64,000 nt of DNA from an uncultured virus (IMG/VR IMGVR_UViG_3300008120_009089) (Duplodnaviria > Heunggongvirae > Uroviricota > Caudoviricetes): IMG/VR virus record IMGVR_UViG_3300008120_009089. One strand, written 5' to 3'. The position numbers and the translations under genes are program-made. The notes beneath the pieces were generated by a model, which was given only the letters and a program-made list of their open reading frames with translations, had not been told where the DNA came from and did no database searches. Shown here piece after piece: positions 1,361 through 53,239 of this stretch (positions within the stretch are counted from its first letter, which is position 1; every line of letters begins with the position of its first letter).

Positions 1361-1747
1361 ATGGAAAAACCAAATAAAGAAGAATTAATGAAAAAATGGG
1401 CACCTATTTTAAATAATATTGGTGTCACTGGATCAAAAGCCGATTGGATGGCTGAATATGCTGAACTACATTCAAATACAAAAATTGAAGAAAATACAAC
1501 ATCACCAGGTGGAACTTCAGAAGAAGAAATGGAAAGAATTAAAAATGAAGTTAAAGCTGAAAATCGTGATAGAATAATAGAATCTTTAATCGAAGATAAG
1601 GAATATAAAGAAATGGATATTACTGAACACCCTGATTATAAAGGACCGGTTGGTACTCTATTTCACTTGGATTTTAAATACGGAGACGATACTGATGATG
1701 AAGAAGTTAAAAGAAGTGTTAAAACACTTGGTAAGAAGAAAAAGTAA
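1361..1747 (+). CDS. Mini-protein carrying gp23/major-capsid-like fragments
   Basis: KEELMKKWAPILNNIG and GPVGTLFHLDFKYG resemble T4-type gp23 segments; internal NRDRIIESLI tag; ATG at 1361 preferred over TTG at 1355. Confidence 0.6.
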   Translation: MEKPNKEELMKKWAPILNNIGVTGSKADWMAEYAELHSNTKIEENTTSPGGTSEEEMERIKNEVKAENRDRIIESLIEDKEYKEMDITEHPDYKGPVGTLFHLDFKYGDDTDDEEVKRSVKTLGKKKK

Positions 1748-1895
1748 TTATAAAAAATTTTCTATAAAGATTGATGAAAAAACTGGAGAGGTTGACTTAT
1801 CAGGTCATTTTATATCTTTCAATAACTATTGGTTTCCATACAACCCAAGACATGATAAAAGAAGAGTAAAAATTAAAAAAATTTATGATAAATAA
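1695..1895 (+). CDS. Mini-protein carrying a portal (gp20)-like fragment
   Basis: YKKFSIKIDEKTGEVDLSGHFISFNNYWFP followed by RRVKIKKIY; start codon uncertain. Confidence 0.5.
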   Translation: MMKKLKEVLKHLVRRKSNYKKFSIKIDEKTGEVDLSGHFISFNNYWFPYNPRHDKRRVKIKKIYDK

Positions 1896-2148
1896 AATAG
1901 TGGAGTTTGTAAAAAGTCTCTTTGTTAAGAAAAAGAAGAAAAATGTATGGGAGGATATAACTGGTATGTTACAAACATTCGAAAGAAGAAATAAAATTGC
2001 TAAATTGTATGGTAAGAAATCACCGACATATCCGATTCCATATCGTAAGACTTTTTATATTCCAATAGGTGAGTTAGATAAAAATAAGGCTCAAAAAGAG
2101 ATAAGTAAACTAATCTCTTCTTATAAAGAAGATATATTTAAAAAATAA
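1885..2148 (+). CDS. Mini-protein carrying a portal (gp20)-like fragment
   Basis: RRNKIAKLY tag followed by RKTFYIPIGELDKNKAQKEISKLISSYKE. Confidence 0.55.
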   Translation: MINKIVEFVKSLFVKKKKKNVWEDITGMLQTFERRNKIAKLYGKKSPTYPIPYRKTFYIPIGELDKNKAQKEISKLISSYKEDIFKK

Positions 2149-2181
2149 AAAATAGAGACATGAGGTGATTATATATACATT

Positions 2182-2517
2182 ATGATAAATGTATATTTAA
2201 TCTCATCAGAATTTGGAGGTAAAAAACTTTATAAAATAGGTTACACAAAAAGAAGTATAAATGAAAGAATGAAAGAATTCAAAACTGGTAATGCTTCTGA
2301 CCTAAAAATAGAAAAGTCATTTCATTCAAAGTGGGGGACTAAAATAGAAGCACATCTTCATAAGAAGTTTAAAGCTTGTAAAGTAAGTGGGGAGTGGTTT
2401 GATTTAGAAAAAGAAGATATTGATAATTTTGAAACTTATTGTCAAATAGTACATAATAATTTAGAGATTATCGAAAAAAATAATACTTACTTCATAGATA
2501 GAGGTGGTAGATTTTAA
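2182..2517 (+). CDS. T5orf172/MUG113-type GIY-YIG domain protein
   Basis: VYLI...YKIGYT..I.ER.K.FKTGN...IEAHLHKKF...GEWF. Confidence 0.85.
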   Translation: MINVYLISSEFGGKKLYKIGYTKRSINERMKEFKTGNASDLKIEKSFHSKWGTKIEAHLHKKFKACKVSGEWFDLEKEDIDNFETYCQIVHNNLEIIEKNNTYFIDRGGRF

Positions 2518-2533
2518 AAAATAAATAATTTGT

Positions 2534-2806
2534 ATGAACTCAATGAAAGAAATCGCAATTAGAGATTATATTTCTAAAATAAATTTTAAAGTAGATGATT
2601 GGAAATTATCTCAAATCAAGGAAGATATGAGAAGATTTTTAGGTGAAGAGCCAGGTATTGATGTAGTTTACAAAAAAGATGTAATGGTAAACGAATTTAC
2701 TGGTGAAGCGAGAGAGTTTAAAGATGTTGATAAAATATCAATTATCTTCACAGACTTAGATAATAGATTTAAAAAGATTGAATTTATTATTGATGAAAAA
2801 TTGTAA
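2534..2806 (+). CDS. Hypothetical protein
   Basis: 90-aa ORF in a co-oriented run. Confidence 0.6.
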   Translation: MNSMKEIAIRDYISKINFKVDDWKLSQIKEDMRRFLGEEPGIDVVYKKDVMVNEFTGEAREFKDVDKISIIFTDLDNRFKKIEFIIDEKL

Positions 2807-2814
2807 TAATTATA

Positions 2815-3051
2815 ATGAATGATAAAATTGGAAAATATTTTTTAGATTTAAATAAAATACACAAATTAGAAGATAAAGAAGAAAGACAGGCAATTCACAC
2901 CTACTATAAAGATATGTTATATGCTTATGGTGATGGTAGAAATGAAATGGCTGAGTCCATTAAGTGGACTTTAATTAATTCTGGTTATTTATTAAATAAT
3001 GATCAGATTAAAAGAGATGAAAAAATAAATGATATTTTAAATGGAGATTAA
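2815..3051 (+). CDS. Hypothetical protein with C-terminal RDEKINDIL tag
   Basis: 78-aa ORF. Confidence 0.6.
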   Translation: MNDKIGKYFLDLNKIHKLEDKEERQAIHTYYKDMLYAYGDGRNEMAESIKWTLINSGYLLNNDQIKRDEKINDILNGD

Positions 3052-3415
3052 AGCCGATATAGTAGATTATATGGGTAAATATGAAAATGGTGTCTTGGTA
3101 TTAATTAGTCTAAATATAGATAATAAATTTTACGAAGGTACCATTTTTTATTCAGATAAAAATATTGTCTTAACGACTGATGAAACAGTTGAAGATGTAA
3201 TTGGCATGAATATAGAATTATGGGATGGATATAAAGACTTATTAGAAAGTATTTTAAAAAAATTAATTCCATATGAAGAAATATCTAAAAGATTGGATGA
3301 AGTTGACTTTGAAAAATATGTTTCATATTACGAAGAAGACTTAGGTAAAATTGTTTTAGATGAAGTAAAACCGGAGGAAATAATAACAGCAACTAACTCA
3401 AACTTATTTCAATAA
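3041..3415 (+). CDS. Hypothetical acidic protein
   Basis: 124-aa ORF overlapping the previous stop. Confidence 0.6.
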   Translation: MEIKADIVDYMGKYENGVLVLISLNIDNKFYEGTIFYSDKNIVLTTDETVEDVIGMNIELWDGYKDLLESILKKLIPYEEISKRLDEVDFEKYVSYYEEDLGKIVLDEVKPEEIITATNSNLFQ

Positions 3416-3447
3416 AATTAGTATAATTTAAAAATTATTTTTATATT

Positions 3448-3747
3448 ATGCTGATTAGCGAAATTGGAATTAGAGGTTTTAAATCATTCGGAAATAATGA
3501 ACAAGTCGTAAAATTAAATACAGAAAAAGGAGAACTTATCTTACTAGTTGGAAACAACGGAAATGGAAAATCTGTTGTTGATAAAACTGAGATTGAGATA
3601 AAATTTTCAATAGATAATTTGAATATAGATGATTTTTGTACTTTTTTGGAAATAATGGATGGGGGAAAGGAATATATTGAATATATAAAAGAAAATAATT
3701 ATTCTTTATATGAGCAATATATTAAAAAACAAAAATCAATTAGATAA
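3448..3747 (+). CDS. Rad50/SbcC (gp46-like) N-extein (41 aa) fused to split intein N-fragment
   Basis: I.GFKSFGN...LLVGNNGNGK is an SMC/Rad50 N-terminus up to the Walker A Lys; SVVDKTEIEIK resembles intein block A. Confidence 0.85.
   Translation: MLISEIGIRGFKSFGNNEQVVKLNTEKGELILLVGNNGNGKSVVDKTEIEIKFSIDNLNIDDFCTFLEIMDGGKEYIEYIKENNYSLYEQYIKKQKSIR
3571..3744 (+). mobile_element. Split intein N-fragment (Ser1; 58 aa, about 11-15 aa look intein-like)
   Basis: Starts right after the Walker A Lys; block-A-like SVVDKTEIEI. Confidence 0.75.
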
Positions 3748-5248
3748 TTATCTAATTGATTTTCACCCAGATAAAAAAAATGAGATCTTAAATCTATTTA
3801 AAGATTTTAATTTTGAATGTGGGAAGACCTCATTTATATCAAAAATGAAGTCTTTAATAGGAATGCCAAAGTTTGGTAAAAAAACTCTAATATATTGGTT
3901 AAGTAGAGGCTGGGATGAAGAAACCGCTAAAATAAAAAGAGTACCAACAATTAAAAATGTTGAAACATCTCCTATGAATATAAATTTTTGGTTAAAAAGG
4001 GGATTTAGTTTAGAAGATTCTGAATATAAAATAAAATCTCAACGAAAAATGAACAAGGAATATTGGATGGAGAGAGGATATACATTGGAAAATTCTATAA
4101 TAAAGTCAAATGAGTTTCAGAAAAATAGTAATAGTTGTTTTATATCAAAATTGGAAAATGATGTGGAGTTTAGAGAAATTATATCATCAAAAAGAAGTAA
4201 TAATATAAATTACTGGATAAACAAAGGTTTTAATTTAGAAGAATCTAAAATTAAATTATCTAATAGACAATCAACATTTTCATTAGAAAAGTGTATTTCT
4301 AAATATGGATCCGATGAAGGTAAAAGAATTTGGTCAGAACGCCAAAATAAATGGCGAAAATCTTTGATGGAATCCGATTACAATGGAATCGATGATAAAG
4401 ATTCTAGATCCATAGAACATTTTAAAAATAAGTATGGTGATATTTGGTTGGAAAAGTATATAGAAACTACATCATTTAAAGATAAAGAAGATATTAGATA
4501 TCTATTATCATTTGAGAATTATAAAGATATGATAATAACTCTTATAAATGATAATTTAACTTTAGCTAAAATAAGTTATAGACTTAATTATTCAGTATTA
4601 TATGAAATATACAATACGAATAAAGAAGATATGTATTCATTTCTTTTGGAAAATTATGAAAAAACTTATGGAACTCCATCATATTATGAAAAAATGTATG
4701 GTGATAAATGGGTAGATGAGTTTATAAAATCTAATAATTTTAAAGATAAAGAAGATATTGTTTTTTTATTATCTTTTGATAATTATTTTAAATTAGTAGA
4801 TTATTTAATGGAAAACTTTAGTATAACTGATATTGTTTTAAAAATAAAAAAAGTTATAGTATCATATTTTTATAAAACTACTTATGAAAAAATGTTTGAA
4901 TATCTAATGTCTGTTAATCCAAGTATAAAATGCAAATATGGTTACATGAGATATTATAATAATCATCTTTGTAGAAGTTCCGGTGAGTATATGATTGCTA
5001 AATTTTTAAAATATAATGAAATTTCATATAAGTACGAAAAATTATATCCAAATTCTAAAAAAAGATGTGATTTTTATTTAATTGATCATGATATTTATAT
5101 AGAATATACAGGTATGTATAAAATCAAAAAACACAATGATAAATATAATGAAAAAAAATCATTTTGTATTGATAATAATATTAAACATTTTTTTTCAAAC
5201 AATATAGAAGAAATAGAAAATAAAATAAAAAGTATATATGGAATTTAA
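3710..5248 (+). CDS. Free-standing putative homing endonuclease (repeats + C-terminal PD-(D/E)xK/Vsr-like nuclease)
   Basis: Four [YF]W..[RK]G[WFY]..E repeats, a duplicated YGD.W...FKDKEDI..LLSF.NY unit, C-terminal RSSGE..IAKFL...YE...CDFYL...YIEY.G; sits between the intein halves. Confidence 0.75.
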   Translation: MSNILKNKNQLDNYLIDFHPDKKNEILNLFKDFNFECGKTSFISKMKSLIGMPKFGKKTLIYWLSRGWDEETAKIKRVPTIKNVETSPMNINFWLKRGFSLEDSEYKIKSQRKMNKEYWMERGYTLENSIIKSNEFQKNSNSCFISKLENDVEFREIISSKRSNNINYWINKGFNLEESKIKLSNRQSTFSLEKCISKYGSDEGKRIWSERQNKWRKSLMESDYNGIDDKDSRSIEHFKNKYGDIWLEKYIETTSFKDKEDIRYLLSFENYKDMIITLINDNLTLAKISYRLNYSVLYEIYNTNKEDMYSFLLENYEKTYGTPSYYEKMYGDKWVDEFIKSNNFKDKEDIVFLLSFDNYFKLVDYLMENFSITDIVLKIKKVIVSYFYKTTYEKMFEYLMSVNPSIKCKYGYMRYYNNHLCRSSGEYMIAKFLKYNEISYKYEKLYPNSKKRCDFYLIDHDIYIEYTGMYKIKKHNDKYNEKKSFCIDNNIKHFFSNNIEEIENKIKSIYGI

Positions 5249-5606
5249 AATAGATCTAAAAAGGCTGAATATTCTAAATAATAAACTGTCTATCATCAAT
5301 AAAGGTGTTAAAGTAAATACTCCAAATGGTTGGAAAAATATAAAAGAAATTGGTATAACATCACCTAATTCCGAAAAAATAATAATAAAAACAAAGGATT
5401 TTGAATTGATTGGTTCTCCAAATCACAGAGTTAAATATTTAGAAAATTGGATTTTCTTAAAAAATCTAAAAATAGGTGATTTTATAAATACTAAAAATGG
5501 TGTACAGACTATTTTATCAATATTAAAAGATGATAAAAGAGAAGATTTATGGGATATTGAAGTAGATGGTCATGAATACTATTCTAATGGAATATTAAGT
5601 CATAAT
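5238..5606 (+). mobile_element. Split intein C-fragment (123 aa, no Cys, ends His-Asn, +1 Ser)
   Basis: CAT AAT at 5601-5606 followed by TCA. Confidence 0.9.
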
Positions 5607-7196
5607 TCATCATTTCTATCTTCCTTTGAATATACACTTTATGGTAAAGTAAGAGGTGGCCGTCAAAAAAAATGGTCTACTTTATCAACTCTCCCAAATA
5701 GAATTAATGGTGAATTATTAAATAGAATTTCATTCAATTCTAACGGTGTTGATGTTGAAATCAAAAGAGGTATTTCACCAAATAAGTTGGAACTTTGGGA
5801 AAACGGAGTTCACAATGAAAGAGCTGGTAAATCAAATATAGATGAAAAGATTGAAAAGTATGTAGGTATGGATATTGAAACATTCAAATCTTTTATATCT
5901 ATGTCTATAAATGACTTCAAAAACTTTATATCTCTTTCAAATGAAGAAAAACAACTACTTTTAGATAAACTTTTTAACTTAGAAGTAATCAATATCTTAA
6001 ATAGTATTTTAAAAGATATAAACAAGTCAAATAAAACAAGAATGGCTTCTTTAAACTCTGAAATAAATACTTTAGAAGAGTCTATTGAATCAATTCAAAG
6101 ATCAATTGATAAAACTATTAAACTTTCAATTGAAAAAGAAAAATTAAATCTACAAGCTGATATTGATCGTCTTATGGAAGAAATGAATTCTAAAAAGGAA
6201 GATTATAAAGCTCTTAAAGAAAAAGTAGAAAAGATTAAAGAAAAAGAGGAAATTTTATCAAATGAAATTGAAAATGAAAAAAAACAATACATTAATATCC
6301 AAAATGATATTCGTAATACACAGAAAGAGATCGATCTTTATGACTCTGGTAAATGTCCCACTTGTAGAACAGATTTTAATTCTGATTACTACTCTTCTTT
6401 AAGACAATCACTTGTTGAGAAAAAAGAGGGTTTTGAAAAAATTAAGACTGAAATAGACGAGAATATCAAAAATATAAAAGAGAAGCAACTTAAACTGAAA
6501 GAAATTTCAACTAAAACAAATGAAACATTCAGCGAAATGAGTTTCTTTTTAAAGAACTGTAAAACTCAAATTGATCAACTAACTAAAAAGAAAGAACTTG
6601 AACAAGTTGATAACTTACCAAATGTTGACGAGTTTAAAAAATCAATTGAAGAGTTAGAAGAAAAAATGTCTTTTAGTAAAGATAATGTTACAGTTTGTAA
6701 AGATAAAGAATTATACTATAAAGAACTATCTAGAATATTTGGTGAAGATGGTGTTAAAAAGTCAATTATTGCTGGTATTATTAAACCACTTAACCACTTT
6801 ATACATGAGAATATAACTAAGATGGGTATTGCTTTTGATGTTAAGTTGGATGAAACATTTACAGCGGAAATCAGACAATTTGGTTCACCAATTGAAAGTG
6901 ATTCATTATCTACTGGTGAGAATAAAAAAGTAAACATTGCTATTTTAATTGCTTACTTAAAGTTAATCCGAACTAAACGACATATCAATATTTTGTTCTT
7001 AGACGAGGTTTTCTCTTCAATTGATATCGAAGGTATAGATTCTATTTTAACACTCTTAAAATCGTTCGCAAACGAGTATAACATAAATATATTTGTTGTA
7101 CACCATGCTATCTTAAATCAAGAAATGTTCGATAGAATTTTAAAAATAAACAAAGATGTTTTCTCAACAATTGAGGAGGTAAACTTCTTAGACTAA
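5238..7196 (+). CDS. Split intein C-fragment fused to Rad50/SbcC (gp46-like) C-extein
   Basis: Intein blocks B (SPNHRV) and F/G (DLWDIEVDGHEYYSNGILSHN/S), then coiled coil, CPTC zinc hook, LSTGE signature, FLDE Walker B and H-loop. Confidence 0.9.
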   Translation: MEFKIDLKRLNILNNKLSIINKGVKVNTPNGWKNIKEIGITSPNSEKIIIKTKDFELIGSPNHRVKYLENWIFLKNLKIGDFINTKNGVQTILSILKDDKREDLWDIEVDGHEYYSNGILSHNSSFLSSFEYTLYGKVRGGRQKKWSTLSTLPNRINGELLNRISFNSNGVDVEIKRGISPNKLELWENGVHNERAGKSNIDEKIEKYVGMDIETFKSFISMSINDFKNFISLSNEEKQLLLDKLFNLEVINILNSILKDINKSNKTRMASLNSEINTLEESIESIQRSIDKTIKLSIEKEKLNLQADIDRLMEEMNSKKEDYKALKEKVEKIKEKEEILSNEIENEKKQYINIQNDIRNTQKEIDLYDSGKCPTCRTDFNSDYYSSLRQSLVEKKEGFEKIKTEIDENIKNIKEKQLKLKEISTKTNETFSEMSFFLKNCKTQIDQLTKKKELEQVDNLPNVDEFKKSIEELEEKMSFSKDNVTVCKDKELYYKELSRIFGEDGVKKSIIAGIIKPLNHFIHENITKMGIAFDVKLDETFTAEIRQFGSPIESDSLSTGENKKVNIAILIAYLKLIRTKRHINILFLDEVFSSIDIEGIDSILTLLKSFANEYNINIFVVHHAILNQEMFDRILKINKDVFSTIEEVNFLD

Positions 7197-7497: not shown

Positions 7498-7686
7498 ATG
7501 TTAATAGTTGAAGTAGATAAAAGTGGTATTGAAAGAGCACTTAAAAAACTTAAAAAGAAGTGGGATAAAAACAAAATGATTAAAGAGTTAAGATCTCGAA
7601 AAGAATTTATTAAAAACACTGATAAAAAAAGAGCAGCTAAAAGTAGAGCAGCTTATATTGAGAAAAAATATAGAAGTCAAGACTAA
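7498..7686 (+). CDS. rpsU: Phage-encoded 30S ribosomal protein bS21
   Basis: 62 aa, basic; MLIV...IERALKKLKKKWDK...ELRSRKEFIK...AAY matches the Bacteroidota-type bS21 pattern. Confidence 0.9.
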   Translation: MLIVEVDKSGIERALKKLKKKWDKNKMIKELRSRKEFIKNTDKKRAAKSRAAYIEKKYRSQD

Positions 7687-8399
7687 TGAATTTATCAAAA
7701 AATTATTATGCTATTTTAGGTGTTCCTAAAAATGCAGATGAAAAAACAATAAAAAAATCTTATTATAAGTTGAGTTTTAAACACCATCCTGATAAGAATG
7801 GAGATGCTGATATTTTCTCCGAAATGACCGAGGCTTATGATGTTTTATGTGGTGAGAATCGAAGTGACTATGATTTAAAATCTAAATATGGAAATAACTA
7901 TAATGAATACTATGAGTTATTTAATATAAATATTGATTTAGAATATGATGATGTTAAATCAACTAGAGAAAAATTTAAAAAAAATGAAGTAAATGATATT
8001 ATAATACAAGTTGATGATGATTTTGATGGAACAGTCGAATTTGAAAGATGGGTAAAGTGTAAATCTTGTGATGGTACTGGTAAAGACTTCTCATCAAAAA
8101 TTATTATTCGTGATAACGATGGTAATATTTTAAAAGTTTTTGATGCTGATGATGGTTGTGACTTTTGTGAAGGTACTGGTAAATATATGGACCAAGAATG
8201 TTCTTTTTGTAATGGAAAGGGTCAAGTTGGATTAAATCATTGTAGTACTTGTAACGGTGAAAAAAGAATTTTAGGTAAACAAAAACTAACTGGTTTAAAA
8301 CTAAAAGGTGATAAAACAAGAATAGATTCGATGGGTCATCATGCTAAAAACGGTAATGTTGGTCACTTATATTTAATAAAAAAAGAGTTACAACAGTAA
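7686..8399 (+). CDS. dnaJ: DnaJ-like co-chaperone (J domain + zinc finger, short C-terminus)
   Basis: NYYAILGV...HPDKN and four CxxCxGx(G/K) repeats. Confidence 0.9.
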   Translation: MNLSKNYYAILGVPKNADEKTIKKSYYKLSFKHHPDKNGDADIFSEMTEAYDVLCGENRSDYDLKSKYGNNYNEYYELFNINIDLEYDDVKSTREKFKKNEVNDIIIQVDDDFDGTVEFERWVKCKSCDGTGKDFSSKIIIRDNDGNILKVFDADDGCDFCEGTGKYMDQECSFCNGKGQVGLNHCSTCNGEKRILGKQKLTGLKLKGDKTRIDSMGHHAKNGNVGHLYLIKKELQQ

Positions 8400-12947: not shown

Positions 12948-12984
12948 ATTCTATATATTAAAATTATATTACTATTATCAAAAA

Positions 12985-18544: not shown

Positions 18545-19264
18545 ATGTCTATGAAAAAAATATTAATATTTACTGGTGCTGGAGTTTCTAAAGAGTCGGG
18601 AGTTGAAACCTTTCGTGATTCTGATGGTCTTTGGTATAACTTCAAAATTGAAGATGTAGCAACCTTAACTGGTTGGAGAAAAGATAAAAATCGTGTTTTG
18701 GATTTTTATAACCAACGTCGCGCTCAAATGAAAGATGTCTATCCAAATGATGCTCATAAAATAATTGCTGAGTTAGAAAAAGATTATAATGTAACTTTAG
18801 TTACTCAAAATGTTGATAATCTACACGAAAGAGCAGGTTCTACTAATGTAATTCATTTACACGGTGAATTATCAAAAGCTAAATCTTCTTTCCCTGGATC
18901 AGATGAAACGTTTGATTGGGAAGGTGATATTAATATTGGTGATAAGTGTTCAAAAGGTTCTCAATTAAGACCAGCTGTTGTTTGGTTTGGTGAAAGTTTG
19001 AACTATAATTTATTATCAAAGGCAGAAGAAGCTGCTCAAAAGTGTGATATTTGTATTATTGTTGGAACATCAATGCAAGTAGCTCCTGCTAATTTACTAC
19101 CAACATTGGTGAAGGATACTTGTAAGATATATTATGTTGATCCTGCTGATGAAATGATTGTTTGGTCAGATTCTTATGGTTTGAGTAAGATTAATTATAC
19201 ACATATTAAAGAACCAGCAACAGTTGGTATGAAAAAAATTGTTGATATTTTAAAAAATGTTTAA
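18545..19264 (+). CDS. cobB: Sir2-family NAD-dependent deacylase (CobB-like)
   Basis: GAGVSKESGVETFR, FYNQRR, TQNVD.LHERAG, HLHG, RPAVVWFGE, VGTS. Confidence 0.93.
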   Translation: MSMKKILIFTGAGVSKESGVETFRDSDGLWYNFKIEDVATLTGWRKDKNRVLDFYNQRRAQMKDVYPNDAHKIIAELEKDYNVTLVTQNVDNLHERAGSTNVIHLHGELSKAKSSFPGSDETFDWEGDINIGDKCSKGSQLRPAVVWFGESLNYNLLSKAEEAAQKCDICIIVGTSMQVAPANLLPTLVKDTCKIYYVDPADEMIVWSDSYGLSKINYTHIKEPATVGMKKIVDILKNV

Positions 19265-19427
19265 GGTTAAGGATGTGGATACTTATTTATCAGAAAGAAG
19301 AAAAGATTTTCATAATGAAAAAATGAAAAAACTGGTTGAGGAGACTGAGGTAATGCTTAAAAAGATGTATTTAGTGAGAATTTCTCAGAGAAGAAAAAAG
19401 ATTATTGAATGGATATGGAAAAAGTAA
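19257..19427 (+). CDS. Small hypothetical protein (56 aa, not in ORF track)
   Basis: MFKVKD...QRRKKIIEWIWKK fills the gap and overlaps both neighbours. Confidence 0.55.
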   Translation: MFKVKDVDTYLSERRKDFHNEKMKKLVEETEVMLKKMYLVRISQRRKKIIEWIWKK

Positions 19428-19717
19428 AATTGTTACAACTACTTATTGATATTTTAGATTTAAGAGATGAAAAGATGAAAGCTATTAAATCTCAAAGATA
19501 TGAAGAAGGTGCCATACTCAGAGATAGAGAAAGAATTCTCGAAAGAATGTTTTACAAAGAAGTAATGGGGTGTGATGATAACTATCAAGACTTTGTTTAT
19601 AGTAAATATACCGAATGTGTTAAAGATTACTTAAAATCTGAATATAATTTAGATTATAATCATTATACAAAAACGGCTTTAATCAGAGAGATAAAATTAA
19701 TTGAGTTGGGTTTATGA
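19409..19717 (+). CDS. UVR (UvrB/UvrC, ClpC M-domain-like) motif protein with C-terminal tag
   Basis: LRDEKMKAIKSQRYEEGAILRDRE; ends REIKLIELGL. Confidence 0.7.
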   Translation: MDMEKVKLLQLLIDILDLRDEKMKAIKSQRYEEGAILRDRERILERMFYKEVMGCDDNYQDFVYSKYTECVKDYLKSEYNLDYNHYTKTALIREIKLIELGL

Positions 19718-19854
19718 ATGTAATATTGGGAAAATCAAGACAAGTTGGTAGAAGCTATATGACTAGTGCGTTTTTTGAGTATCAAATGAAAATATTAAAC
19801 TTTGAAAAGGTTAGTATAAGAAAGAGAAAGTTAAGAAAGATTTTTAATATATAG
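19714..19854 (+). CDS. 46-aa mini-protein with terminase Walker-A-like fragment (not in ORF track)
   Basis: MNVILGKSRQVGRSYMTSAFF...RKRKLRKIFNI; ATGA overlap with the upstream stop. Confidence 0.6.
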   Translation: MNVILGKSRQVGRSYMTSAFFEYQMKILNFEKVSIRKRKLRKIFNI

Positions 19855-39420: not shown

Positions 39421-40386
39421 ATGGCAAAAATTGCAAACAACCACGTTTCTAAGCCAAGTGCTTGGGTCGTAAATTCTACTGATAGAGGTAGAAAATCTAT
39501 TAAAAACGGAAAAGTTTATCTAAAAGATTCCGAAGAATTCCAAATCGAATTATATAATCCACTTACAGACTGTGTCTTAGCTGATATTAAGTTAAATGGT
39601 AATTCAATTTCAAAAACTGGATTGGTTTTAAAACCAGGTCAAAGATTTTATCTTGATTGTTTTATTGATGATAAAAAGAAATTTATTTTTTCAACTTATG
39701 AAGTTGACGCTTCATTAGAATCGATAAACGCTACTCAAAATAACGGTAAATTAGAAGTTTTCTTTTATAAAGAATCTGTTGTTTCTATTAAAAATTGGAG
39801 AGATAGATTTAATACAGTTATAATTGAAAGATACTATCCTACATATCCAACATACCCAAACACTTGGATAACTTACGGAAGTGGAACATTAAGTGGGAAT
39901 ACAACTGGTGGTTATTACACAAATAATATTATTGGTACAAACACAAGTGGTAGTACAACAACTACTTCATATAATTCTACCAATGCAACATATACAACTG
40001 GTGTGGATTTATCAAATTGTATTGGTTCTTTATCTTCTGGTCATAAGATTAACACTTCATTTGAAACCGGTAGAGTTGAAAAGGGATCATCATCTTCACA
40101 AAAGTTCTCTGAGATTGATATGGACTTTGATACATATCATATTTCATCAACTATTTTACAATTATTACCTGAGAGTGTTAAACCAGTATCAACATCTGAT
40201 ATAAAAAAAGAACCATTGAAAAATAAAGTAAATGAAACTGAGTTGAAAAAAGAATGGGATAAAATAAAAGAGATTGATGGTATCTTAGATTTAATTAAGA
40301 AATTAGATGATTTACACAAAGCCGGTGTTTTAACCGATGAAGAGTTTTCGGAAAAGAAAAAAGAATTATTATCAAAGATATGTTAG
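39421..40386 (+). CDS. Hypothetical protein with C-terminal SHOCT domain
   Basis: IKKLDDLHKAGVLTDEEFSEKKKELL; S/T-rich linker. Confidence 0.7.
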   Translation: MAKIANNHVSKPSAWVVNSTDRGRKSIKNGKVYLKDSEEFQIELYNPLTDCVLADIKLNGNSISKTGLVLKPGQRFYLDCFIDDKKKFIFSTYEVDASLESINATQNNGKLEVFFYKESVVSIKNWRDRFNTVIIERYYPTYPTYPNTWITYGSGTLSGNTTGGYYTNNIIGTNTSGSTTTTSYNSTNATYTTGVDLSNCIGSLSSGHKINTSFETGRVEKGSSSSQKFSEIDMDFDTYHISSTILQLLPESVKPVSTSDIKKEPLKNKVNETELKKEWDKIKEIDGILDLIKKLDDLHKAGVLTDEEFSEKKKELLSKIC

Positions 40387-40712
40387 AACAGAATGAATTA
40401 AATTTAGATAACCCAATATTCACCTATTATGTTAATATTGGTGGCATGTCTCGACAAAGAGCAGAGGAGACATTATCAGAAATAGCAAAATCGTTTAATT
40501 ATCAAAATGTAACTATTTGGTTTGTACCAATCCAACAAGGTGATTCTAGAATTGATTGCGTTTATGATGGTCGTATTAGAGAAAGAAGTGAAGAACTAAA
40601 ATCACTAATAGAAGAATTAAATGAGAAAGTTGACATTCTATCAAGAACCAATTCATTTGAGGACTTTAAAATTGAAGTCAGAGATTGGAGATTGAAAAAT
40701 CTATTTAAATAA
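40380..40712 (+). CDS. Small protein with portal-like fragment and C-terminal tag
   Basis: YYVNIGGMSRQRAEETL; ends RDWRLKNLF. Confidence 0.55.
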   Translation: MLEQNELNLDNPIFTYYVNIGGMSRQRAEETLSEIAKSFNYQNVTIWFVPIQQGDSRIDCVYDGRIRERSEELKSLIEELNEKVDILSRTNSFEDFKIEVRDWRLKNLFK

Positions 40713-44845: not shown

Positions 44846-45028
44846 TTAAAAAGGTAAATCATTGAAATCTTCATCAGAAATAGTTTGAACACTATTCGGA
44901 TTTAGTTGTTCCATATACAATTTATTTTTATGATCTTCCATCAATCTTAAAAAATCATTATATTGATTGATATCCAAAGTTGTATTTTCAATCATATCAT
45001 AAACTATACTATCTACTGAACCATTCAT
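44846..45028 (-). CDS. 60-aa protein ending in an SSB-like acidic tip
   Basis: C-terminus SDEDFNDLPF; TAnnTTTG box upstream. Confidence 0.55.
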   Translation of the reverse strand: MNGSVDSIVYDMIENTTLDINQYNDFLRLMEDHKNKLYMEQLNPNSVQTISDEDFNDLPF

Positions 45029-45061: not shown

Positions 45062-45469
45062 TTAATTTGAATGTTTATCAATTCTATCAAAAAAATCTCC
45101 AAGAGTTACAGTTGTTTGGTAATTAGGTTCTCTTAAACCTAAAATCATATCTATCTTACGATTTCTCATTTCGGATTTACCATAAACACTTTCCATATCA
45201 ACATAAGTTCCAGGTACACTTGGATCACTGATACGCCAGTTACGAAATGATTTATTGATAACTTTATAACCCCAATCAATTTCCGGTATTTTTATATAAT
45301 CCCATTCAATATACTCCCACTCATACTCATAATCATCATAATCATCATCCCAATCATAATAAAATCCCCACCACCACTGACCATTACAGTGATTATATGG
45401 TCGAATATCAAGTTTGTCAATATCGTTCTCGATTATATCAAATTTACTTTTATATTTTTTCAAAGACAT
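45062..45469 (-). CDS. Hypothetical W/Y/D-rich protein with RNRKIDMIL tag
   Basis: 135-aa ORF. Confidence 0.55.
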   Translation of the reverse strand: MSLKKYKSKFDIIENDIDKLDIRPYNHCNGQWWWGFYYDWDDDYDDYEYEWEYIEWDYIKIPEIDWGYKVINKSFRNWRISDPSVPGTYVDMESVYGKSEMRNRKIDMILGLREPNYQTTVTLGDFFDRIDKHSN

Positions 45470-45972
45470 TATAATATATCATCTAATTTTCTATCTCTTC
45501 TAAAAGAAATTATTTCAGCAATTATCTTACTTTTATTTCCAATAATGACAAACTCTTTCATTAATTTATCTAATACACCAAGTGGAAAATCATCATCCAT
45601 CATATTATACCCACCTGACTCAGTTAATGACTGTTTTAAATAACCATCTTCATCATTATAATCTGTATCATCAAATATATACTCTCCTGATAGCTCCGTT
45701 AAATCAGAAAGAAATGGACTTTCAAATAAATACCCTGTCGGTGGTCTTAAATCAGTCAACCACTCATCAACATAAGTTATGTATATTTTATCCAATTTGT
45801 GTGATGATGTGTAAATCTCATATATATCAGATATATTATCATTTATATAAGTAGATCCTAAACGATGGTAAATTATATAATCACCATTCTCACATCTTAA
45901 ATTATTTAAGTATTCTCTTCCTTGTTCTATACTAAATAACTTTATTGGACTTTCCTCAGTTCCATAATTCAT
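45469..45972 (-). CDS. Hypothetical protein with C-terminal RDRKLDDIL tag
   Basis: 167-aa ORF. Confidence 0.6.
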   Translation of the reverse strand: MNYGTEESPIKLFSIEQGREYLNNLRCENGDYIIYHRLGSTYINDNISDIYEIYTSSHKLDKIYITYVDEWLTDLRPPTGYLFESPFLSDLTELSGEYIFDDTDYNDEDGYLKQSLTESGGYNMMDDDFPLGVLDKLMKEFVIIGNKSKIIAEIISFRRDRKLDDIL

Positions 45973-45975: not shown

Positions 45976-46410
45976 TTACATCAAATTTCTTATATCTATA
46001 TGCGACAATTTTTCTAAGTCGTCATTAGATTTAAAAAGTAAGAATGGAGTTTTAAAATATTTAGAATAAACCTCTGTATCATCAATATGTAAATCTATTC
46101 CCCACTTCTCACAATATTCACCTTTAATACTATCCCACAAATCATTATCAAACTTTCTTTGTGTTGTACCATCAGGGAATTTAATTCTACCCATTTGTTT
46201 AGCACCAATACTTTTCAAATGATCATAAACAGAAAATGAGTGTGTATAGATAACACCACTCTGTTCAACTAAATTTTTTAGCTCATCATTCCAAGTACCA
46301 CCAGTGATGATGTGTACTTCTCCACCCGCATCAATAACACTCTTACTGAGAAAAGCAAATATTTCAGGCTTACTATCAATAACTCCGTGTATATCCAAAC
46401 CTAATTTCAT
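45976..46410 (-). CDS. HAD-superfamily phosphatase-like protein
   Basis: LGLDIHGVI, IITG, K, LHIDD. Confidence 0.75.
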   Translation of the reverse strand: MKLGLDIHGVIDSKPEIFAFLSKSVIDAGGEVHIITGGTWNDELKNLVEQSGVIYTHSFSVYDHLKSIGAKQMGRIKFPDGTTQRKFDNDLWDSIKGEYCEKWGIDLHIDDTEVYSKYFKTPFLLFKSNDDLEKLSHIDIRNLM

Positions 46411-46703
46411 TACTCTAATATTTGGTTTATTTTATTATCTCGCTCTTTTAAAATTATAATAGCCTTCACTTCTTCCAAGTCTAAGATGTAATCCATTATA
46501 TACCTTGGGATTGCCTCTTTTTTATTTGGATCAAAATAATCTATTCTTTTACAATTAGCAAAAGGACTCTTTCTTATCATTTTTTTGAAATTCTCACCTT
46601 CTTCTAATTGAAAAATTTCATGTTTAAGATTCCATGGTGAACTAACAAGTTTACCACTCTCTTTAACAAAGACTCCTATATTTTCAAACTTCACAAAATA
46701 CAT
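46410..46703 (-). CDS. Hypothetical protein with C-terminal RDNKINQIL tag
   Basis: 97-aa ORF, TAnnTTTG box upstream. Confidence 0.6.
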   Translation of the reverse strand: MYFVKFENIGVFVKESGKLVSSPWNLKHEIFQLEEGENFKKMIRKSPFANCKRIDYFDPNKKEAIPRYIMDYILDLEEVKAIIILKERDNKINQILE

Positions 46704-47362: not shown

Positions 47363-48856
47363 CTATTTTGTCATAGTATCATTATAACAAATTGATACAC
47401 ATTTAATTAATCTACTAATAGTTTCTCTCATTCCTAAGATACTCATAGTAGTCATTAAGTCTGGTCCAGAGATACCACCCACAAGAGCCATTCTCAACCC
47501 TGGCATCACTTTACCCATTTTGATACCATTGTTATTACAAATGTTGTTAATCAAATCTTTGATATCCATTGGAACATCAAAGTTAACACTTGTACAACTC
47601 TTGATAAATCCATCAACATCATTAGAAAATACTGTGATAAAATTATCATCAATTTTTTTAATATCTGTAATAACCGGATCATTAAAGAAAAGGTCAACAA
47701 TTGTATTCAAATCATGTTTGAATTCAGATCTTTCTTTAGCCAAGTCAATGATTTTATTCAACTTATCATCAGAATATCTATCATCCTTAATATTGATAAA
47801 TGGTTTCAAATCGTTATTTGGAGTCATTCTCAAATAATTAGCATTTATCCATTTTGCTTTATCCATATCAAAACGAGCTCCTGATTTATGAACTCTATCT
47901 AAAGAGAATGAATTAATCATATCATCCATAGACATAATTTCAACATCACCTCCTGGGTTCCATCCAATTAACGCCAATGAATTGATAAAAGCTTTTGGAT
48001 CAAATCCTAAATCTTTCCAACCATCAACATAATTACCAGAATCATCTGTGTAACCAAGTGGAGCAATTGGAATACCATATTTCATTGCTGTTCTTTTAGA
48101 TAACTTACCTTTACCATCTGGGTTCATAATTAGTGGCAAATGAGCGAATGTAGGTACATCCCAACCAAATGCCTTATAAAGGATTACATGGAATGGTGTA
48201 CTATTAACCCACTCGTTACCTCTAAGTACGTGAGTAACACCCATATCATGGTCGTCACAAACATTACAAAGATGATAAGAACCAATACCATTTGATTTAA
48301 TCAAAACTTTATCATCTAAAGTATTGGTATTGATTGTGATACTTCCTAAGATAGCATCATCAAAAGTAATATCAACATTAGGTTCAACTGCGAAACGGAT
48401 AACATACGGAACACCACTTTGCAACATTACATCAGTTGATGGATTAGTCAATGAGTTATTCATAGACATACGAGTAGTCGCATCATATTTTAAACCTTTT
48501 GATTTAAGAACTTCTAATTCATCTTTAGTATCAAAAGCGTAATAAGCCAATCCGTTATTTAACAAAAATTTAACTTTATCAGAATAATCTCTTTCTGATT
48601 GTACAAAAGAACCAATTGATGGATCTGGGTTCCAATAAGAACCATCTGGAACTATTCCTAACCAATCACACATATCCTTGAAATAATCGAGAAAAGAAGG
48701 TGTGTAACGATCTCTATCAGTGTCTTCTAACCGCACATAGAACTTCCCACCATTTTTCTTAGCAAGAAAATAGTTATAAATTAAAGTTCTCAAATTTCCA
48801 AGATGCGAGAATGGTCCCGTGGGTGAAGGTGCTATCCTTGTTACAATTTTTGTCAT
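47363..48856 (-). CDS. gltX: Glutamyl-tRNA synthetase
   Basis: RIAPSPTG..HLGN (HIGH-like), RLEDTD, QSER, DDHDMGVTHVLRG.EW, KLSKR, anticodon-binding domain. Confidence 0.95.
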   Translation of the reverse strand: MTKIVTRIAPSPTGPFSHLGNLRTLIYNYFLAKKNGGKFYVRLEDTDRDRYTPSFLDYFKDMCDWLGIVPDGSYWNPDPSIGSFVQSERDYSDKVKFLLNNGLAYYAFDTKDELEVLKSKGLKYDATTRMSMNNSLTNPSTDVMLQSGVPYVIRFAVEPNVDITFDDAILGSITINTNTLDDKVLIKSNGIGSYHLCNVCDDHDMGVTHVLRGNEWVNSTPFHVILYKAFGWDVPTFAHLPLIMNPDGKGKLSKRTAMKYGIPIAPLGYTDDSGNYVDGWKDLGFDPKAFINSLALIGWNPGGDVEIMSMDDMINSFSLDRVHKSGARFDMDKAKWINANYLRMTPNNDLKPFINIKDDRYSDDKLNKIIDLAKERSEFKHDLNTIVDLFFNDPVITDIKKIDDNFITVFSNDVDGFIKSCTSVNFDVPMDIKDLINNICNNNGIKMGKVMPGLRMALVGGISGPDLMTTMSILGMRETISRLIKCVSICYNDTMTK

Positions 48857-49891: not shown

Positions 49892-50504
49892 AAGTTTTAT
49901 TTAATAAATCTTCAATCGCTTGAACACCATCACTATTTATCTCACGAGTACCAATTCCAGCAAAATTCTCTTCTGTTATTTTTGGAGTATCTTTTAATTG
50001 AACAAATCTTAAAGCATTATAAGACCATCTAAACCAAGACTTCTTATTTTGTTCATAAACGTAAACTTCTTTCTCGTTATTGATAGCCATTTGAACAGCA
50101 TAACCAGTACCACCCGAAACGATATCATATTTAGATTTATTATAATAACCCTTACTATCTTTACTACCAGGATTTACTATACTACCTATTGCAAAAACTT
50201 GATTAGAATATTTAACTTGAGACCAATTTCTAGCTAAGAGATTCATATATTTTTGAATACCAAATCTACCTAAAACCTTATTAGCACGGTTTATCTCATT
50301 AACACCTTCATTATAATCATCATCTGATATCTCAACTTTATTAGGTGAGTCATGATATTTAGTTTTATAGGAAAAAGCCCTAACCTTAATACCTCTTTCA
50401 ATACATTTATTTTCAAAAACAGTATCCGTTCCAACGGCACCACCAGAGTTACAAGTCATTCTATCAAGTCTAATTGGTCTTTTATTAAATAAATCGTCTA
50501 TCAT
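49884..50504 (-). CDS. SLOG-superfamily (DprA/Smf-LOG-like) protein
   Basis: SGGAVGTD, ARN..QV, GGTGYAVQMA, K.VYV. Confidence 0.7.
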   Translation of the reverse strand: MIDDLFNKRPIRLDRMTCNSGGAVGTDTVFENKCIERGIKVRAFSYKTKYHDSPNKVEISDDDYNEGVNEINRANKVLGRFGIQKYMNLLARNWSQVKYSNQVFAIGSIVNPGSKDSKGYYNKSKYDIVSGGTGYAVQMAINNEKEVYVYEQNKKSWFRWSYNALRFVQLKDTPKITEENFAGIGTREINSDGVQAIEDLLNKTFN

Positions 50505-50770
50505 TTGTTTAAAATATTAGTTAGTATCATTTCTCTAGTTAGTTGTTTGTCTGAAATCTTTAATATAATTGAAAATTTTTCTTCACCAAAGTTTCTATGT
50601 ATAGTTACTTTTGTATCCTTATCAAAGGCTTGTATACCAAATTTTTTATTTATAAAATCTCTGCTACGATTTTTAGCTTGAGTTAGATTTTCACCAGAAA
50701 GAATTTCAAAATCAATATTATGACAACCAATTAAATTATCATTTAAATCATATACAAATAAATCAGTCAT
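50501..50770 (-). CDS. Hypothetical protein with C-terminal REMILTNIL tag
   Basis: 89-aa ORF. Confidence 0.55.
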   Translation of the reverse strand: MTDLFVYDLNDNLIGCHNIDFEILSGENLTQAKNRSRDFINKKFGIQAFDKDTKVTIHRNFGEEKFSIILKISDKQLTREMILTNILNK

Positions 50771-51647: not shown

Positions 51648-52048
51648 AATAACTTTTTTAATTGATAATCTCTTAGTTCAGATTTAAAATTTCTTTTCAT
51701 TTTATTGAACCGACTTTTTAAATGATCTACCTTTTTCTCAGCTTCCAACAATTCATCAAACCAATCCTTAAACATTTGTAATGATAACACACTATCGAAA
51801 TCAATTTCATACTCATTGGAAATATTACATCCAATAACAACCCAATGATCATTAAGTATTTGATTTCCTAATACTTTATTTTGTATTCTAACATGAGTAT
51901 AAAAACCTTTAAATTTATTATTATACTTCTTTATACGAAAACTAGTATAGTTAGGTTTACCTAAAAAAGCATACTTTGCTTTATTTATTTCAAAGTTTTC
52001 TTCAAAATAGACATCCTTTATAATATCAAAAACTTCATCTTCTGTCAT
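51644..52048 (-). CDS. Hypothetical protein with C-terminal RDYQLKKLL tag
   Basis: 134-aa ORF. Confidence 0.6.
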   Translation of the reverse strand: MTEDEVFDIIKDVYFEENFEINKAKYAFLGKPNYTSFRIKKYNNKFKGFYTHVRIQNKVLGNQILNDHWVVIGCNISNEYEIDFDSVLSLQMFKDWFDELLEAEKKVDHLKSRFNKMKRNFKSELRDYQLKKLL

Positions 52049-52102
52049 ATACCCAATTGTTTAAGTTTTTCATCTCTTATTGTAGTCCTGTATCTTTTTC
52101 AT
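52045..52102 (-). pseudogene. Frameshifted tag-only micro-ORF
   Basis: Removing one A from the A5 run after ATG gives MKRYRTTIRDEKLKQLGI-stop. Confidence 0.4.
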
Positions 52103-52105
52103 AAT

Positions 52106-52297
52106 TTACTTTTTTAAATTAGCACGAATAAATCCAGCTAAATATCCAGAAATAACAGCCATTGCTGCAAAACCTCTTGTATTAAATACAATATTTCCTT
52201 TAATTAAAATTTCCCCGTATGTGTTATCACAATATACGGATATTGATGGCTCATATTGCCTTGCCTGATTAATGAGTTTATTTATTGAGGCTTCCAT
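52106..52297 (-). CDS. Hypothetical protein
   Basis: 63-aa ORF in an operon. Confidence 0.55.
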   Translation of the reverse strand: MEASINKLINQARQYEPSISVYCDNTYGEILIKGNIVFNTRGFAAMAVISGYLAGFIRANLKK

Positions 52298-52302
52298 AAT
52301 GG

Positions 52303-52566
52303 TTAGTTTTGTTTTAACAAATATACAAATAAAAATTGATCATGCAAGGATGAGGTGCAAAAAAGTGCGTGTTTTTTTGCATGACTTAATAATTCTTCAT
52401 TTTTTTGAATAAAATTTTTTAACTCACTCATTTCTTGATAAACATCTATCTGACTTGGATAAATATTAAGTCTTGGATCATTTTCTAATTTTTTTAATTT
52501 TTTCTTAGCATCTAAAATATCATTATATAAAGACATTACCAACACCTCAATAGTAGGAACTTTCAT
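52303..52566 (-). CDS. Hypothetical coiled-coil protein
   Basis: 87-aa ORF in an operon. Confidence 0.55.
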   Translation of the reverse strand: MKVPTIEVLVMSLYNDILDAKKKLKKLENDPRLNIYPSQIDVYQEMSELKNFIQKNEELLSHAKKHALFCTSSLHDQFLFVYLLKQN

Positions 52567-52587
52567 ATACCCAACATTTTCAATTTA

Positions 52588-52725
52588 TCATCCCATATAA
52601 AAAATAGACAATTTATGTTCTAATTCTCTCCTCTTTTGTCTATCACTTTTATCTGAATAGTAATCAAAGTTACCATTTCTTTGTTTATCTTGATAGTTTA
52701 CAAAATTATTATCTTTATACTTCAT
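52588..52725 (-). CDS. 45-aa ORF, possibly frameshifted before a DDKLKMLGI tag
   Basis: ATGA overlap with the upstream gene; removing one T of a T6 run extends it to 52563. Confidence 0.45.
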   Translation of the reverse strand: MKYKDNNFVNYQDKQRNGNFDYYSDKSDRQKRRELEHKLSIFYMG

Positions 52726-53075
52726 ATACCTAATTGATTAAGTTTATCTTCTCTTCTATCCGCTTTCAATTTAGTTTCCCAATATTCATCATAAGTTATG
52801 AAATAAGTATTTAACTCATTTAAATCTAAATAATACCACTTAATTCTTTCTGAATATGGTTTTTTCCACCAATCTTTTATAAGATTACCTTTATCATCGT
52901 GTGATCCGTACCAATCATCTTCGATACAAATACCCCAACCTTTTCTACCACCAACTTCTGGGTCAGCATTAAAAGTCAAGTTTCCTCTACCTTTTATGTT
53001 ATAAGAACCACCAACTCTATAATTTAAGTATGGTTTTATACAAACTACTGATTGTGCGTCTTCCCACTTTTCCAT
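52722..53075 (-). CDS. Hypothetical protein with C-terminal REDKLNQLGI tag
   Basis: 117 aa; V.CIK...Y and ..YF pattern shared with 63251-63778. Confidence 0.6.
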   Translation of the reverse strand: MEKWEDAQSVVCIKPYLNYRVGGSYNIKGRGNLTFNADPEVGGRKGWGICIEDDWYGSHDDKGNLIKDWWKKPYSERIKWYYLDLNELNTYFITYDEYWETKLKADRREDKLNQLGI

Positions 53076-53239
53076 ATCTTTTCTATTTTATGAAATCTTT
53101 TATAAAGTATTTTTAACTTAAAAGTTTCTGAATAATATTCATCATCTATATTTAGAAACTTATTAGGCAAACCATAATTGGAGTTTATAATAATTTTTCT
53201 GAATTGTAAACTAACTTCTATAATTTGACTCTTATTCAT
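53045..53239 (-). CDS. Mini-protein carrying a family-B DNA polymerase motif-B-like fragment
   Basis: QFRKIIINSNYG (KxxxNSxYG), then KRFHKIEKIW. Confidence 0.55.
   Translation of the reverse strand: MNKSQIIEVSLQFRKIIINSNYGLPNKFLNIDDEYYSETFKLKILYKRFHKIEKIWKSGKTHNQ

Follow-up and report, generated by a model that had tools for sequence, protein, structure and literature searches.

A 64,000-nucleotide stretch of DNA from an uncultured tailed phage (IMG/VR record IMGVR_UViG_3300008120_009089; the whole stretch is called the window below) carries a set of mini-genes which, judged from the sequences of the phage and its relatives, are real genes under selection, each a truncated paralogue that retains a segment of 20-60 residues from one of the oligomeric machines encoded by the phage itself. 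Their homology to the parent proteins, the loss of the catalytic parts, their conservation across diverged genomes and their association with one shared helix were observed directly in the comparisons described here. They also have the structural traits of microProtein-type mimics, in that they are small, correspond to a single segment of a larger paralogue and have lost its catalytic or structural body. It is quite conceivable, and is the reading that we tentatively favour, that the minis are competitive mimics of the 'microprotein' type that tune the phage's own assembly and proteostasis.

The window has a guanine-plus-cytosine (GC) content of 25-30%, is tightly packed with 77 called open reading frames (ORFs), and is part of a megaphage of 25% GC with a T4-type core that is kin to LR745206 and LR756502, here W01 and W02 (uncultured phages of 634-642 kb with 990 and 1,009 called genes, respectively), the glutamyl-tRNA synthetase of the window being 71-72% identical to those of the two relatives. 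T4-type portal, capsid and terminase genes are present in both relatives, whose median protein identity to each other is 53% over 447 reciprocal pairs, and only 123 of 435 small W01 genes have a partner. Sequencing runs containing the window sequence carry the labels lake water, freshwater, aquatic or fungus metagenome, and none of them is recorded as RNA. The window matches three IMG/VR records at 99.9% identity, and these records, once merged (OWN; 329 genes), represent ~260 kb of the phage's own genome. As this assembly is without the structural module, stand-in cognates were taken from W01, W02 and 80 related IMG/VR loci, namely those containing the portal-scaffold-capsid block.

An earlier reading of the window from its letters alone (the sequence-only reading) had proposed that six small ORFs each display a hallmark fragment of a core phage protein joined to a common helix, an arrangement hard to ascribe to chance. 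All six are present as open frames where that reading had placed them, and a PHROGs search assigned no family to any of them. Each fragment was compared with the parent named beforehand, the result being expressed as the rank of that parent among the 990 W01 proteins and as a z score against shuffles. Combined by Fisher's method, the six pre-specified ranks give p ~7e-7 (our own arithmetic). The sampling of hallmark segments from several core proteins, together with one helix, is far above chance.

The capsid-like fragment proposed at ORF 1361 (ORFs are named by their first position in the window; coordinates are collected in the table) is borne out by several comparisons with the major capsid protein (MCP). 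Residues 5-40 of the ORF align to residues 7-43 of the W01 MCP (phmmer E 2.4e-11), the MCP ranks 2/990 (z 20) with only the mini's own ortholog above it, the profile of the three-genome family finds both MCPs (E 3e-21 and 6e-18; segments MCP 7-47 and 86-114), and a clade hidden Markov model (HMM) of the MCP matches the ORF at E 1e-11. The homology is to the conserved N-terminal segment of gp23-type MCPs (PF07068); the HK97-fold body of that family is absent, and no Pfam family matched ORF 1361 even at E <= 10. Members of the family are built in the order MCP 1-47, then 86-112 (in W01 and W02), an acidic insert helix, MCP 112-128 and a lysine tail, the insert helix of ORF 1361 containing the internal motif RDRIIESL (conserved family form ENRD[RG]KI[DE]S[IL]). 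The family begins with EELMKKWAPIL, which is the N-terminus of ordinary T4-like capsid proteins, the clade's own MCP having KAMKKWSPVL. Orthologs occur in W01, W02 and the IMG/VR loci L199-L202, and the capsid mimic was found in every relative examined.

Two ORFs, 1885 and 40380, have local homology to the portal protein, and taken together they appear to copy a segment of about residues 263-349. For ORF 1885, the portal ranks 2/990 (z 5.9), and the best matches of the family profile are the two portals (E 2.3e-5 and 6.2e-5). The clade portal HMM matches the ORF at E 0.015 and its W02 ortholog at E 1.2e-12, Pfam Portal_T4 (PF07230) matches it at E 0.0025 and 17 bits (cut-off 22.9) over profile positions 204-235 only, and a protein search returned the ORF itself and one ortholog, 75% identical. 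For ORF 40380, the portal ranks 7/990 (z 3.7). A three-member profile of this family was not significant against the portal (E 0.23), and hhalign of 78 members of the family, which has 191 representatives at E <= 0.001, against 32 portals gave a probability of 86% and E 5e-6 over 46 columns, the alignment covering G[LM]SRQRAEE and Y.N.T.W..P. None of the 78 members matched a Pfam family, and a 1,724-aa match from the same search (P0022) was set aside as an unrelated repeat protein. An AlphaFold2 (AF2) model of the family has a pLDDT of 89.8 and predicts a beta-alpha-beta-beta unit followed by a helical hairpin, the last helix of which is the shared motif. Foldseek returned no match to this model at E <= 0.001, the top hit of a VIA fold search (Z 6.1) was confined to the hairpin, and no clear match was found among solved structures.

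The portal likeness claimed for a third ORF, 1695, is not significant in direct comparison (rank 225/990, z 0.1) and stands solely through a bridge. Its segment ..TGEVDLSG..NNYWFPYNP bears a weak likeness to portal ~315-337, and the W02 ortholog of ORF 1885 carries portal 277-337 contiguously; in addition, W01_291877 combines DYWFP, the helix and portal 277-308 within one ORF. The best other match of ORF 1695 is a W01 mini that copies motif A of the family B DNA polymerase (PolB; E 0.007). The Pfam portal search (PF07230) gave no match for 40380 or 1695, and none of the three ORFs reaches the cut-off for a T4-type portal (22.9 bits) or covers its wing, stem, clip and crown.

The terminase fragment, ORF 19714, reads SRQVGRS where the Walker A motif of the large terminase subunit (TerL) reads SRQVGKT, the flanks also matching the TerL strand-helix, and the pattern [SP]RQ.G[KR][ST] occurs among all called ORFs of W01 and OWN in the W01 TerL and ORF 19714 only. 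TerL ranks 3/990 (z 3.8), and a profile including the W01 ortholog matches TerL at E 0.06, which lends the Walker-A-like assignment moderate support. The W01 ortholog (50 aa) retains ARQTGKS, with GKS, and the ending KKIFNI; W01 thus carries both this mini and a full TerL, identified by PF03237 at E 6e-22. A protein search with ORF 19714 returned itself only. The catalytic Walker A Lys (here Arg), Walker B and the nuclease domain of PF03237 are absent from its 46 residues, and a search of five records for Terminase_6C (PF17289) gave no match.

The UVR motif noticed at ORF 19409 proved to be copied from the M-domain of a Clp-type ATPase that the phage itself encodes. The aligned stretches are residues 14-44 of the ORF and residues 303-333 of this ATPase, OWN_218570_220759 (729 aa; phmmer E 5e-6), which ranks 1/328 (z 8.8) and comprises AAA, AAA_lid_9, UVR (301-334), AAA_2 and ClpB_D2-small domains. 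The similarity to the Clp/Hsp100 M-domain is accompanied by a Pfam UVR (PF02151) match at E 0.0044 and 17.2 bits, under the 21.5 cut-off. Besides this Clp/Hsp100 ATPase (218570-220759), OWN also encodes a full DnaJ and a GrpE (248982-251451).

Two other candidates of the sequence-only reading were not upheld. ORF 53045, put forward as a polymerase motif B fragment, contains KIIINSNYG, which matches only the textbook pattern K...NS.YG; the real motif B of the clade is KLVLNGSYG, and the C-part of PolB ranks 272/990 (z 0.1), so the ORF was rejected as a PolB copy. A free-standing LAGLIDADG endonuclease gene (53284-54162) is its immediate upstream neighbour. In this clade the family B DNA polymerase is itself encoded by two genes ~100 kb apart, the break falling between motifs A and B (W01 130568-131992 and 232803-234344; OWN 25262-26788), and from a reading of the sequence there are charged heptad-like helices at the end of the N part and at the start of the C part. 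ORF 44846 was rejected as an SSB-like tail: a Pfam search gave no match at E <= 0.01, and the closest relative found was a W01 ortholog (E 7e-8), with a sugar epimerase as the match after it.

The pattern is not confined to the window, as capsid, portal, protease-scaffold and PolB motif A minis also occur elsewhere in this phage and in two related ones. Of 1,379 small ORFs from three genomes, 17 matched a clade HMM at E <= 0.05 (11 that of the MCP, 2 that of the portal and 4 that of the protease-scaffold protein). The MCP matches span the N-terminal, 36-100, 428-459 and 513-559 regions, and Pfam Gp23 adds small ORFs matching the spine-helix region, one of them at 33 bits, above the cut-off. 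W01 has the PolB motif A mini mentioned above (rank 2/989, z 8.9) and a mini of portal 482-497 (rank 1, z 7.7). Among the large proteins of this genome, the MCP has the most small-ORF matches (4), and only 12 of 174 have any. One candidate picked by eye as a copy of MCP 470-494 (OWN_54458) was rejected (rank 405/990). One protease-scaffold copy overlaps the stop of a full DnaJ gene in a GrpE-DnaJ gene run. As had been proposed, the fragments are non-catalytic, cut-down copies of hallmark segments, from which the bodies and catalytic parts of the parents are absent.

The minis have intact orthologs in two or three genomes, and when these are aligned, the columns without change include those of the helix and of the copied motif. 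Since the frames stay intact at a median protein identity of 53%, in DNA where random frames close quickly, the minis are considered to be under selection. The helix is present in 14 of the 17 profile-supported mini-copies, compared with 331 of 1,377 small ORFs overall (24%), and its basic subtype is associated with matches to head proteins (Fisher p 1.6e-6).

The motif of the shared helix, R..[KRI][IL]..[IL], occurs in 14 of the 32 gene-map proteins of the window with no more than 130 residues, against 0.8 +/- 1.0 in shuffles (n=200), and in 13 gene-map ORFs the distance to the stop is 1-5 residues. The motif closes 29/329 genes in OWN, 121/990 in W01 and 122/1,009 in W02 (9-12%). Genome-wide, its position peaks 2-3 residues before the stop, with 29 of 52 occurrences in OWN and 121 of 189 in W01 lying within six residues of the end. 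Because only ~1.1% of rejected off-frame ORFs end in the motif and its internal rate is ~0.0003 per residue, the motif is ~40-fold enriched at the C-terminus. The commoner form is ..KSEI-RDxK[LI]NxL[LG].., and a rarer basic form, R[RK]xK[IL]xK[IL][FY], is found almost exclusively in ORFs of 46-89 aa. The codons encoding the helix differ between copies, which rules out a repeated DNA element and identifies the helix as a feature of the protein. Mimicry of a 14-residue scaffold repeat was also ruled out by comparison of position-specific scoring matrices (P = 0.42). That repeat, NIAYSEY[LI]AENLDK, occurs in ~11 tandem copies, followed by an acidic stretch, in a ~700-aa protease-like/scaffold protein upstream of the MCP (loci L117-L196; e.g., L132 7826-9916).

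Not all of the six ORFs carry the helix as a terminal tag. It is C-terminal in 1695, 19714 and 40380, and internal in 1361 and 1885, where the internal position is kept in the orthologs; in 53045 it is present but lies 9 residues before the stop and was counted as internal. The two small ORFs at 2534-2806 and 2815-3051, which end in the helix, have orthologs in L199-L202. A literature search found no description of the shared helix or of fragment mini-genes.

Table. Mini-genes, ORFs with the shared helix and an adjoining endonuclease-like gene in the window.
Feature	Position	Strand	Remarks
Putative capsid-protein (MCP) mimic, 128 aa	1361..1747	+	Copies MCP ~1-47 and ~112-128
Small ORF overlapping the ends of both neighbours	1695..1895	+	Weak likeness to portal ~315-337; C-terminal basic helix RRVKIKKIY
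Putative portal-segment mimic	1885..2148	+	Internal basic helix RRNKIAKLY, then copy of portal ~277-308
T5orf172/MUG113 (GIY-YIG-like) gene	2182..2517	+	Pfam PF13455 E 1.5e-16, PF10544 E 1.3e-12
Two small ORFs ending in the shared helix	2534-2806 and 2815-3051	+	Ends RFKKIEFIIDEKL; RDEKINDILNGD
94-aa ORF ending in the shared helix	7212..7496	+	End RNHRLDNLLKNKE; directly before bS21 and DnaJ-like genes
56-aa ORF	19257..19427	+	Ends RKKIIEWIWKK
Clp/Hsp100 UVR/M-domain copy	19409..19717	+	Copy in residues ~14-44; C-terminal shared helix REIKLIELGL
46-aa TerL P-loop strand-helix copy	19714..19854	+	VILGKSRQVGRSYMTSAFF, Lys replaced by Arg, then basic helix RKRKLRKIFNI
Member of ~105-aa family	40380..40712	+	First ~60 residues align to portal 284-349; last helix is the shared motif RDWRLKNLFK
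60-aa ORF	44846..45028	-	Earlier labelled SSB-like tail
Tagged ORF	45469-45972	-	Ends RDRKLDDIL
Tagged ORF	46410-46703	-	Ends RDNKINQILE
89-aa ORF	50501..50770	-	Ends REMILTNILNK
117-aa ORF	52722..53075	-	Ends REDKLNQLGI
64-aa ORF	53045..53239	-	KIIINSNYG; helix motif RFHKIEKI 9 residues before the stop
175-aa ORF	63251..63778	-	Ends RDHIINDLLN

The parents are represented by the MCP N-terminus and the following strand region, portal ~263-349, the terminase P-loop strand-helix and the Clp/Hsp100 M-domain, with the protease-scaffold protein and PolB motif A as further parents elsewhere in the genome. As a competitive mimic, each mini would retain the contact element of its parent and none of its activity, and would thereby occupy the parent's partner, which might be a neighbouring subunit, the scaffold, the chaperonin, the terminase-docking site or the contacts of the Clp M-domain, with the outcome that the phage adjusts its own assembly and proteostasis. 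The clade-wide amphipathic helix, which most minis bear in the form R-x-x-[KR]-[IL]-x-x-[IL]-[LFY], would plug them into one common reader. We infer binding, competition, a self-directed target and a single reader from this pattern. A self-directed role is favoured because all parents act as oligomeric machines or as chaperones, one of them being a Clp ATPase, and because conservation of the families runs deep. The overlap of one protease-scaffold copy with a DnaJ gene and the lack of an ATATATA box (see below) before the gene-map minis also count in its favour. As for the chaperonin, a review of the T4 head reports that the N-terminus of gp23 directs fusion proteins to GroEL (PMC3012670).

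Several observations weigh against this proposal. A P-loop strand-helix or a polymerase motif offers no obvious interface and would better fit a 'hallmark display'. In the AF2 model of the 40380 family, the shared helix packs on the preceding helix, so that its role there may be structural and not that of a free handle. The capsid mimic, with its EELMKKWAPIL start, is nearer to generic T4-like capsid proteins than to the MCP of the clade, which would also fit a weapon against other phages. The content of one mini-gene slot varies among relatives, a kind of turnover more often seen in arms-race genes. The cognates compared come from relatives, the phage's own MCP, portal and TerL lying outside the ~260 kb of OWN. 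Finally, the terminase case is moderate, that of ORF 1695 is weak and ORF 53045 fails.

The least unlikely of the alternatives, which we nevertheless regard as unlikely, is that the minis are immune decoys that occupy or mislead host sensors of capsid, portal and terminase, the helix perhaps passing the sensor to a common sink. Avs, CapRel and Lit-type defences are classically set off by MCP, portal and TerL, and the capsid mimic covers the region aligned to the T4 N-terminus and the strand region that follows. P-loop and polymerase motifs, moreover, are 'hallmarks' and not interfaces. The genomic setting could also agree with decoys. An ATATATA box 20-45 nt upstream of the start, which looks like a phage promoter element, precedes 54 of 329 OWN genes (7.4 expected) and 115 of 990 W01 genes (22 expected), as well as the MCP, portal and scaffold genes of related contigs (loci L117-L196); none of the five gene-map minis has one at -45..-20 (1695 being outside the gene map), and the minis are located among small genes without the box. 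In four genomes, portal-fragment minis fill the slot between the capsid mimic and the T5orf172 gene; two others have a different mini there. The T5orf172 gene is conserved directly downstream of this variable slot, beside the capsid mimic, in L199-L202. In L201 (3416-3607) and L202 (3416-3661), the slot mini has the helix in mid-protein, with flanks that by eye appear to resemble a tail-sheath N-terminus (..PGVY..). Set against decoys, a fragment recognised by a sensor could equally trigger it, the Clp M-domain and scaffold-repeat parents are not known triggers, and the deep conservation of the 40380 family (191 representatives) and of the capsid mimic, unlike that of typical anti-defence accessory genes, argues mildly for housekeeping in the phage's own assembly or proteostasis over an arms-race decoy.

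Slightly more doubtful is a role of the minis as prohead cargo or head-assembly accessories, in which the helix would be a capsid- or scaffold-targeting peptide, comparable to the T4 targeting sequence or to encapsulin cargo-loading peptides, and the capsid, portal and scaffold pieces would help the minis to enter the prohead core. The 17 profile-supported mini-copies do derive from MCP, portal or protease-scaffold protein, and the helix closes roughly a tenth of the genes, mostly small and unrelated ones. A parallel is found in T4, where the capsid targeting sequence (CTS), a short conserved element, is the sole feature shared by the diverse internal proteins that are packaged (PMC3012670). 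A role in the head would not, however, account for the TerL, PolB motif A and Clp copies; the helix has no similarity to the 14-residue scaffold repeat in the matrix comparison given above, and the minis lie outside the structural module and are without the ATATATA box.

A further possibility, to which we give a low probability, is that the minis form a conserved, partly exchangeable bait-plus-handle library, in which the bait would be a hallmark of a core protein (capsid, portal, terminase, polymerase, protease-scaffold or Clp) and the helix a handle for one machine. Such a library would capture binders of hallmarks, such as host sensors or the assembly partners of a competitor, for sequestration or destruction.

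It is improbable that the minis are debris of recombination or homing-endonuclease traffic, that is, pieces of conserved genes fused to a common 3' element and devoid of a function of their own. Endonuclease genes are abundant, and in the window an SbcC gene is split by an HNH gene and a PhoH gene has an intein; inteins and introns typically insert at hallmark motifs. ORF 53045 lies beside the LAGLIDADG gene and the 1361-2148 cluster beside the T5orf172 gene, the only minis of the window with endonuclease neighbours. Among four OWN mini sites checked outside the window, those at 11.2, 54.5 and 229 kb have no endonuclease gene within ~3.5 kb and the one at 248.8 kb has a GIY-YIG gene ~1.1 kb away (1/4), so that a general adjacency of minis to homing endonucleases was rejected. 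The frames have also stayed open, with copied motif and helix kept, at the protein identity given above, the widely represented 40380 family has a confident AF2 fold, and the varying helix codons are not those of one repeated DNA element. Least probable of all are dominant-negative weapons by which conserved interface segments would poison the assembly of co-infecting T4-like phages: the start of the capsid mimic does match generic T4-like MCP N-termini better than that of the clade, and the segments copied are the most conserved parts of core genes, but the phage's own assembly would be expected to be poisoned too, and the generic-looking MCPs were found at ~40% GC versus 25-30% for the clade.

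Several other features of the window were recorded. The SbcC/Rad50-like gene appears to be split into an N-terminal Walker A piece of 99 aa (3448-3747), an HNH-matching ORF of 512 aa (3710-5248) and a remainder of 652 aa (5238-7196); a single 565-aa protein of W01 includes the first 44 residues. The PhoH-like ATPase (34115-35980, a 621-aa ORF) contains an intein with a LAGLIDADG endonuclease (Pfam PhoH, Intein_splicing and LAGLIDADG_2). At 7498-8399, a gene for ribosomal protein bS21 (62 aa) has a short DnaJ-like gene (237 aa, with a J domain and a zinc finger) immediately after it. Three giant ORFs (1,511, 1,817 and 2,047 aa; 8412-18438 and 27653-33796) have no PHROG family and weak matches to proprotein-convertase P-domains. 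Auxiliary genes include a glutamyl-tRNA synthetase (47363-48856), a Sir2-family gene (18545-19264) and a gamma-glutamyl cyclotransferase-like gene (62910-63239). A run of 28 N at 57971-57998 lies inside the ORF starting at 56793, where the IMG/VR records have ~240 bases.

Should the minis be competitive mimics, the clade would regulate or protect its largest machines by a modular kit consisting of a copied contact segment and a common helix, which would represent a new layer of phage biology and a natural source of peptide inhibitors for capsid, portal, terminase and Clp interactions. Were they decoys instead, this would be the first phage to answer pattern-recognition immunity with fragments of the sensed proteins, and a bait-plus-handle library would amount to a principle of phage counter-immunity not yet described. 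The helix that ends about 1 in 10 genes points to a putative common reader, for which the fragment minis offer testable handles. The 40380 family, with its 191 representatives, no Pfam model and a confident predicted fold, merits a family description.

Each of several known systems shares some of these properties. In 'fractured genes', a gene is split by a free-standing homing endonuclease or an intein, and small ORFs with a hallmark motif result, as in the SbcC Walker A piece; split pieces complement a neighbour, whereas the minis bear the helix and coexist with an intact parent located far away (W01 TerL and its mini). In the case of encapsulin cargo-loading peptides, an HK97-fold shell reads short C-terminal peptides of unrelated proteins. 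The helix is likewise a short C-terminal peptide common to unrelated proteins, but its sequence differs, and a capsid protein as its reader would be at most hypothetical here. The triggers of Avs, CapRel and Lit-type systems, terminase, portal and capsid, are the same three parents that are sampled by the minis; in contrast, what those systems sense, in known hosts, is either a folded protein of full length or a defined peptide, and a literature search found no phage decoy built of trigger fragments.

The Gol region of T4 gp23 is linked to Lit. ORF 1361 copies the same part of the capsid protein as the N-terminal region of gp23, with its propeptide, GroEL-targeting N-terminus and Gol region, including the [KE]KW.P[IV][LI] start; unlike gp23, it constitutes a gene of its own (128 aa) in which a helix is inserted and a lysine tail added, and with both the A and the P domain missing, its product cannot form a shell. 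The T4 CTS (PMC3012670) resembles the helix in being one short conserved peptide common to diverse small phage proteins, but it is N-terminal and tied to the scaffolding core and head protease, whereas the helix here is C-terminal or internal and different in sequence.

A different comparison is offered by the microProteins of plants and animals, such as LITTLE ZIPPER and the Id proteins, which consist of one interaction element of a larger paralogue and are thought to titrate the parent or its partner. The minis differ from them in having phage virion, packaging, replication and chaperone parents, in the many different parents sampled within one genome and in their extra common helix. What they share with microProteins is that they are small, derive from one element of a larger paralogue and do without the activity of the parent.

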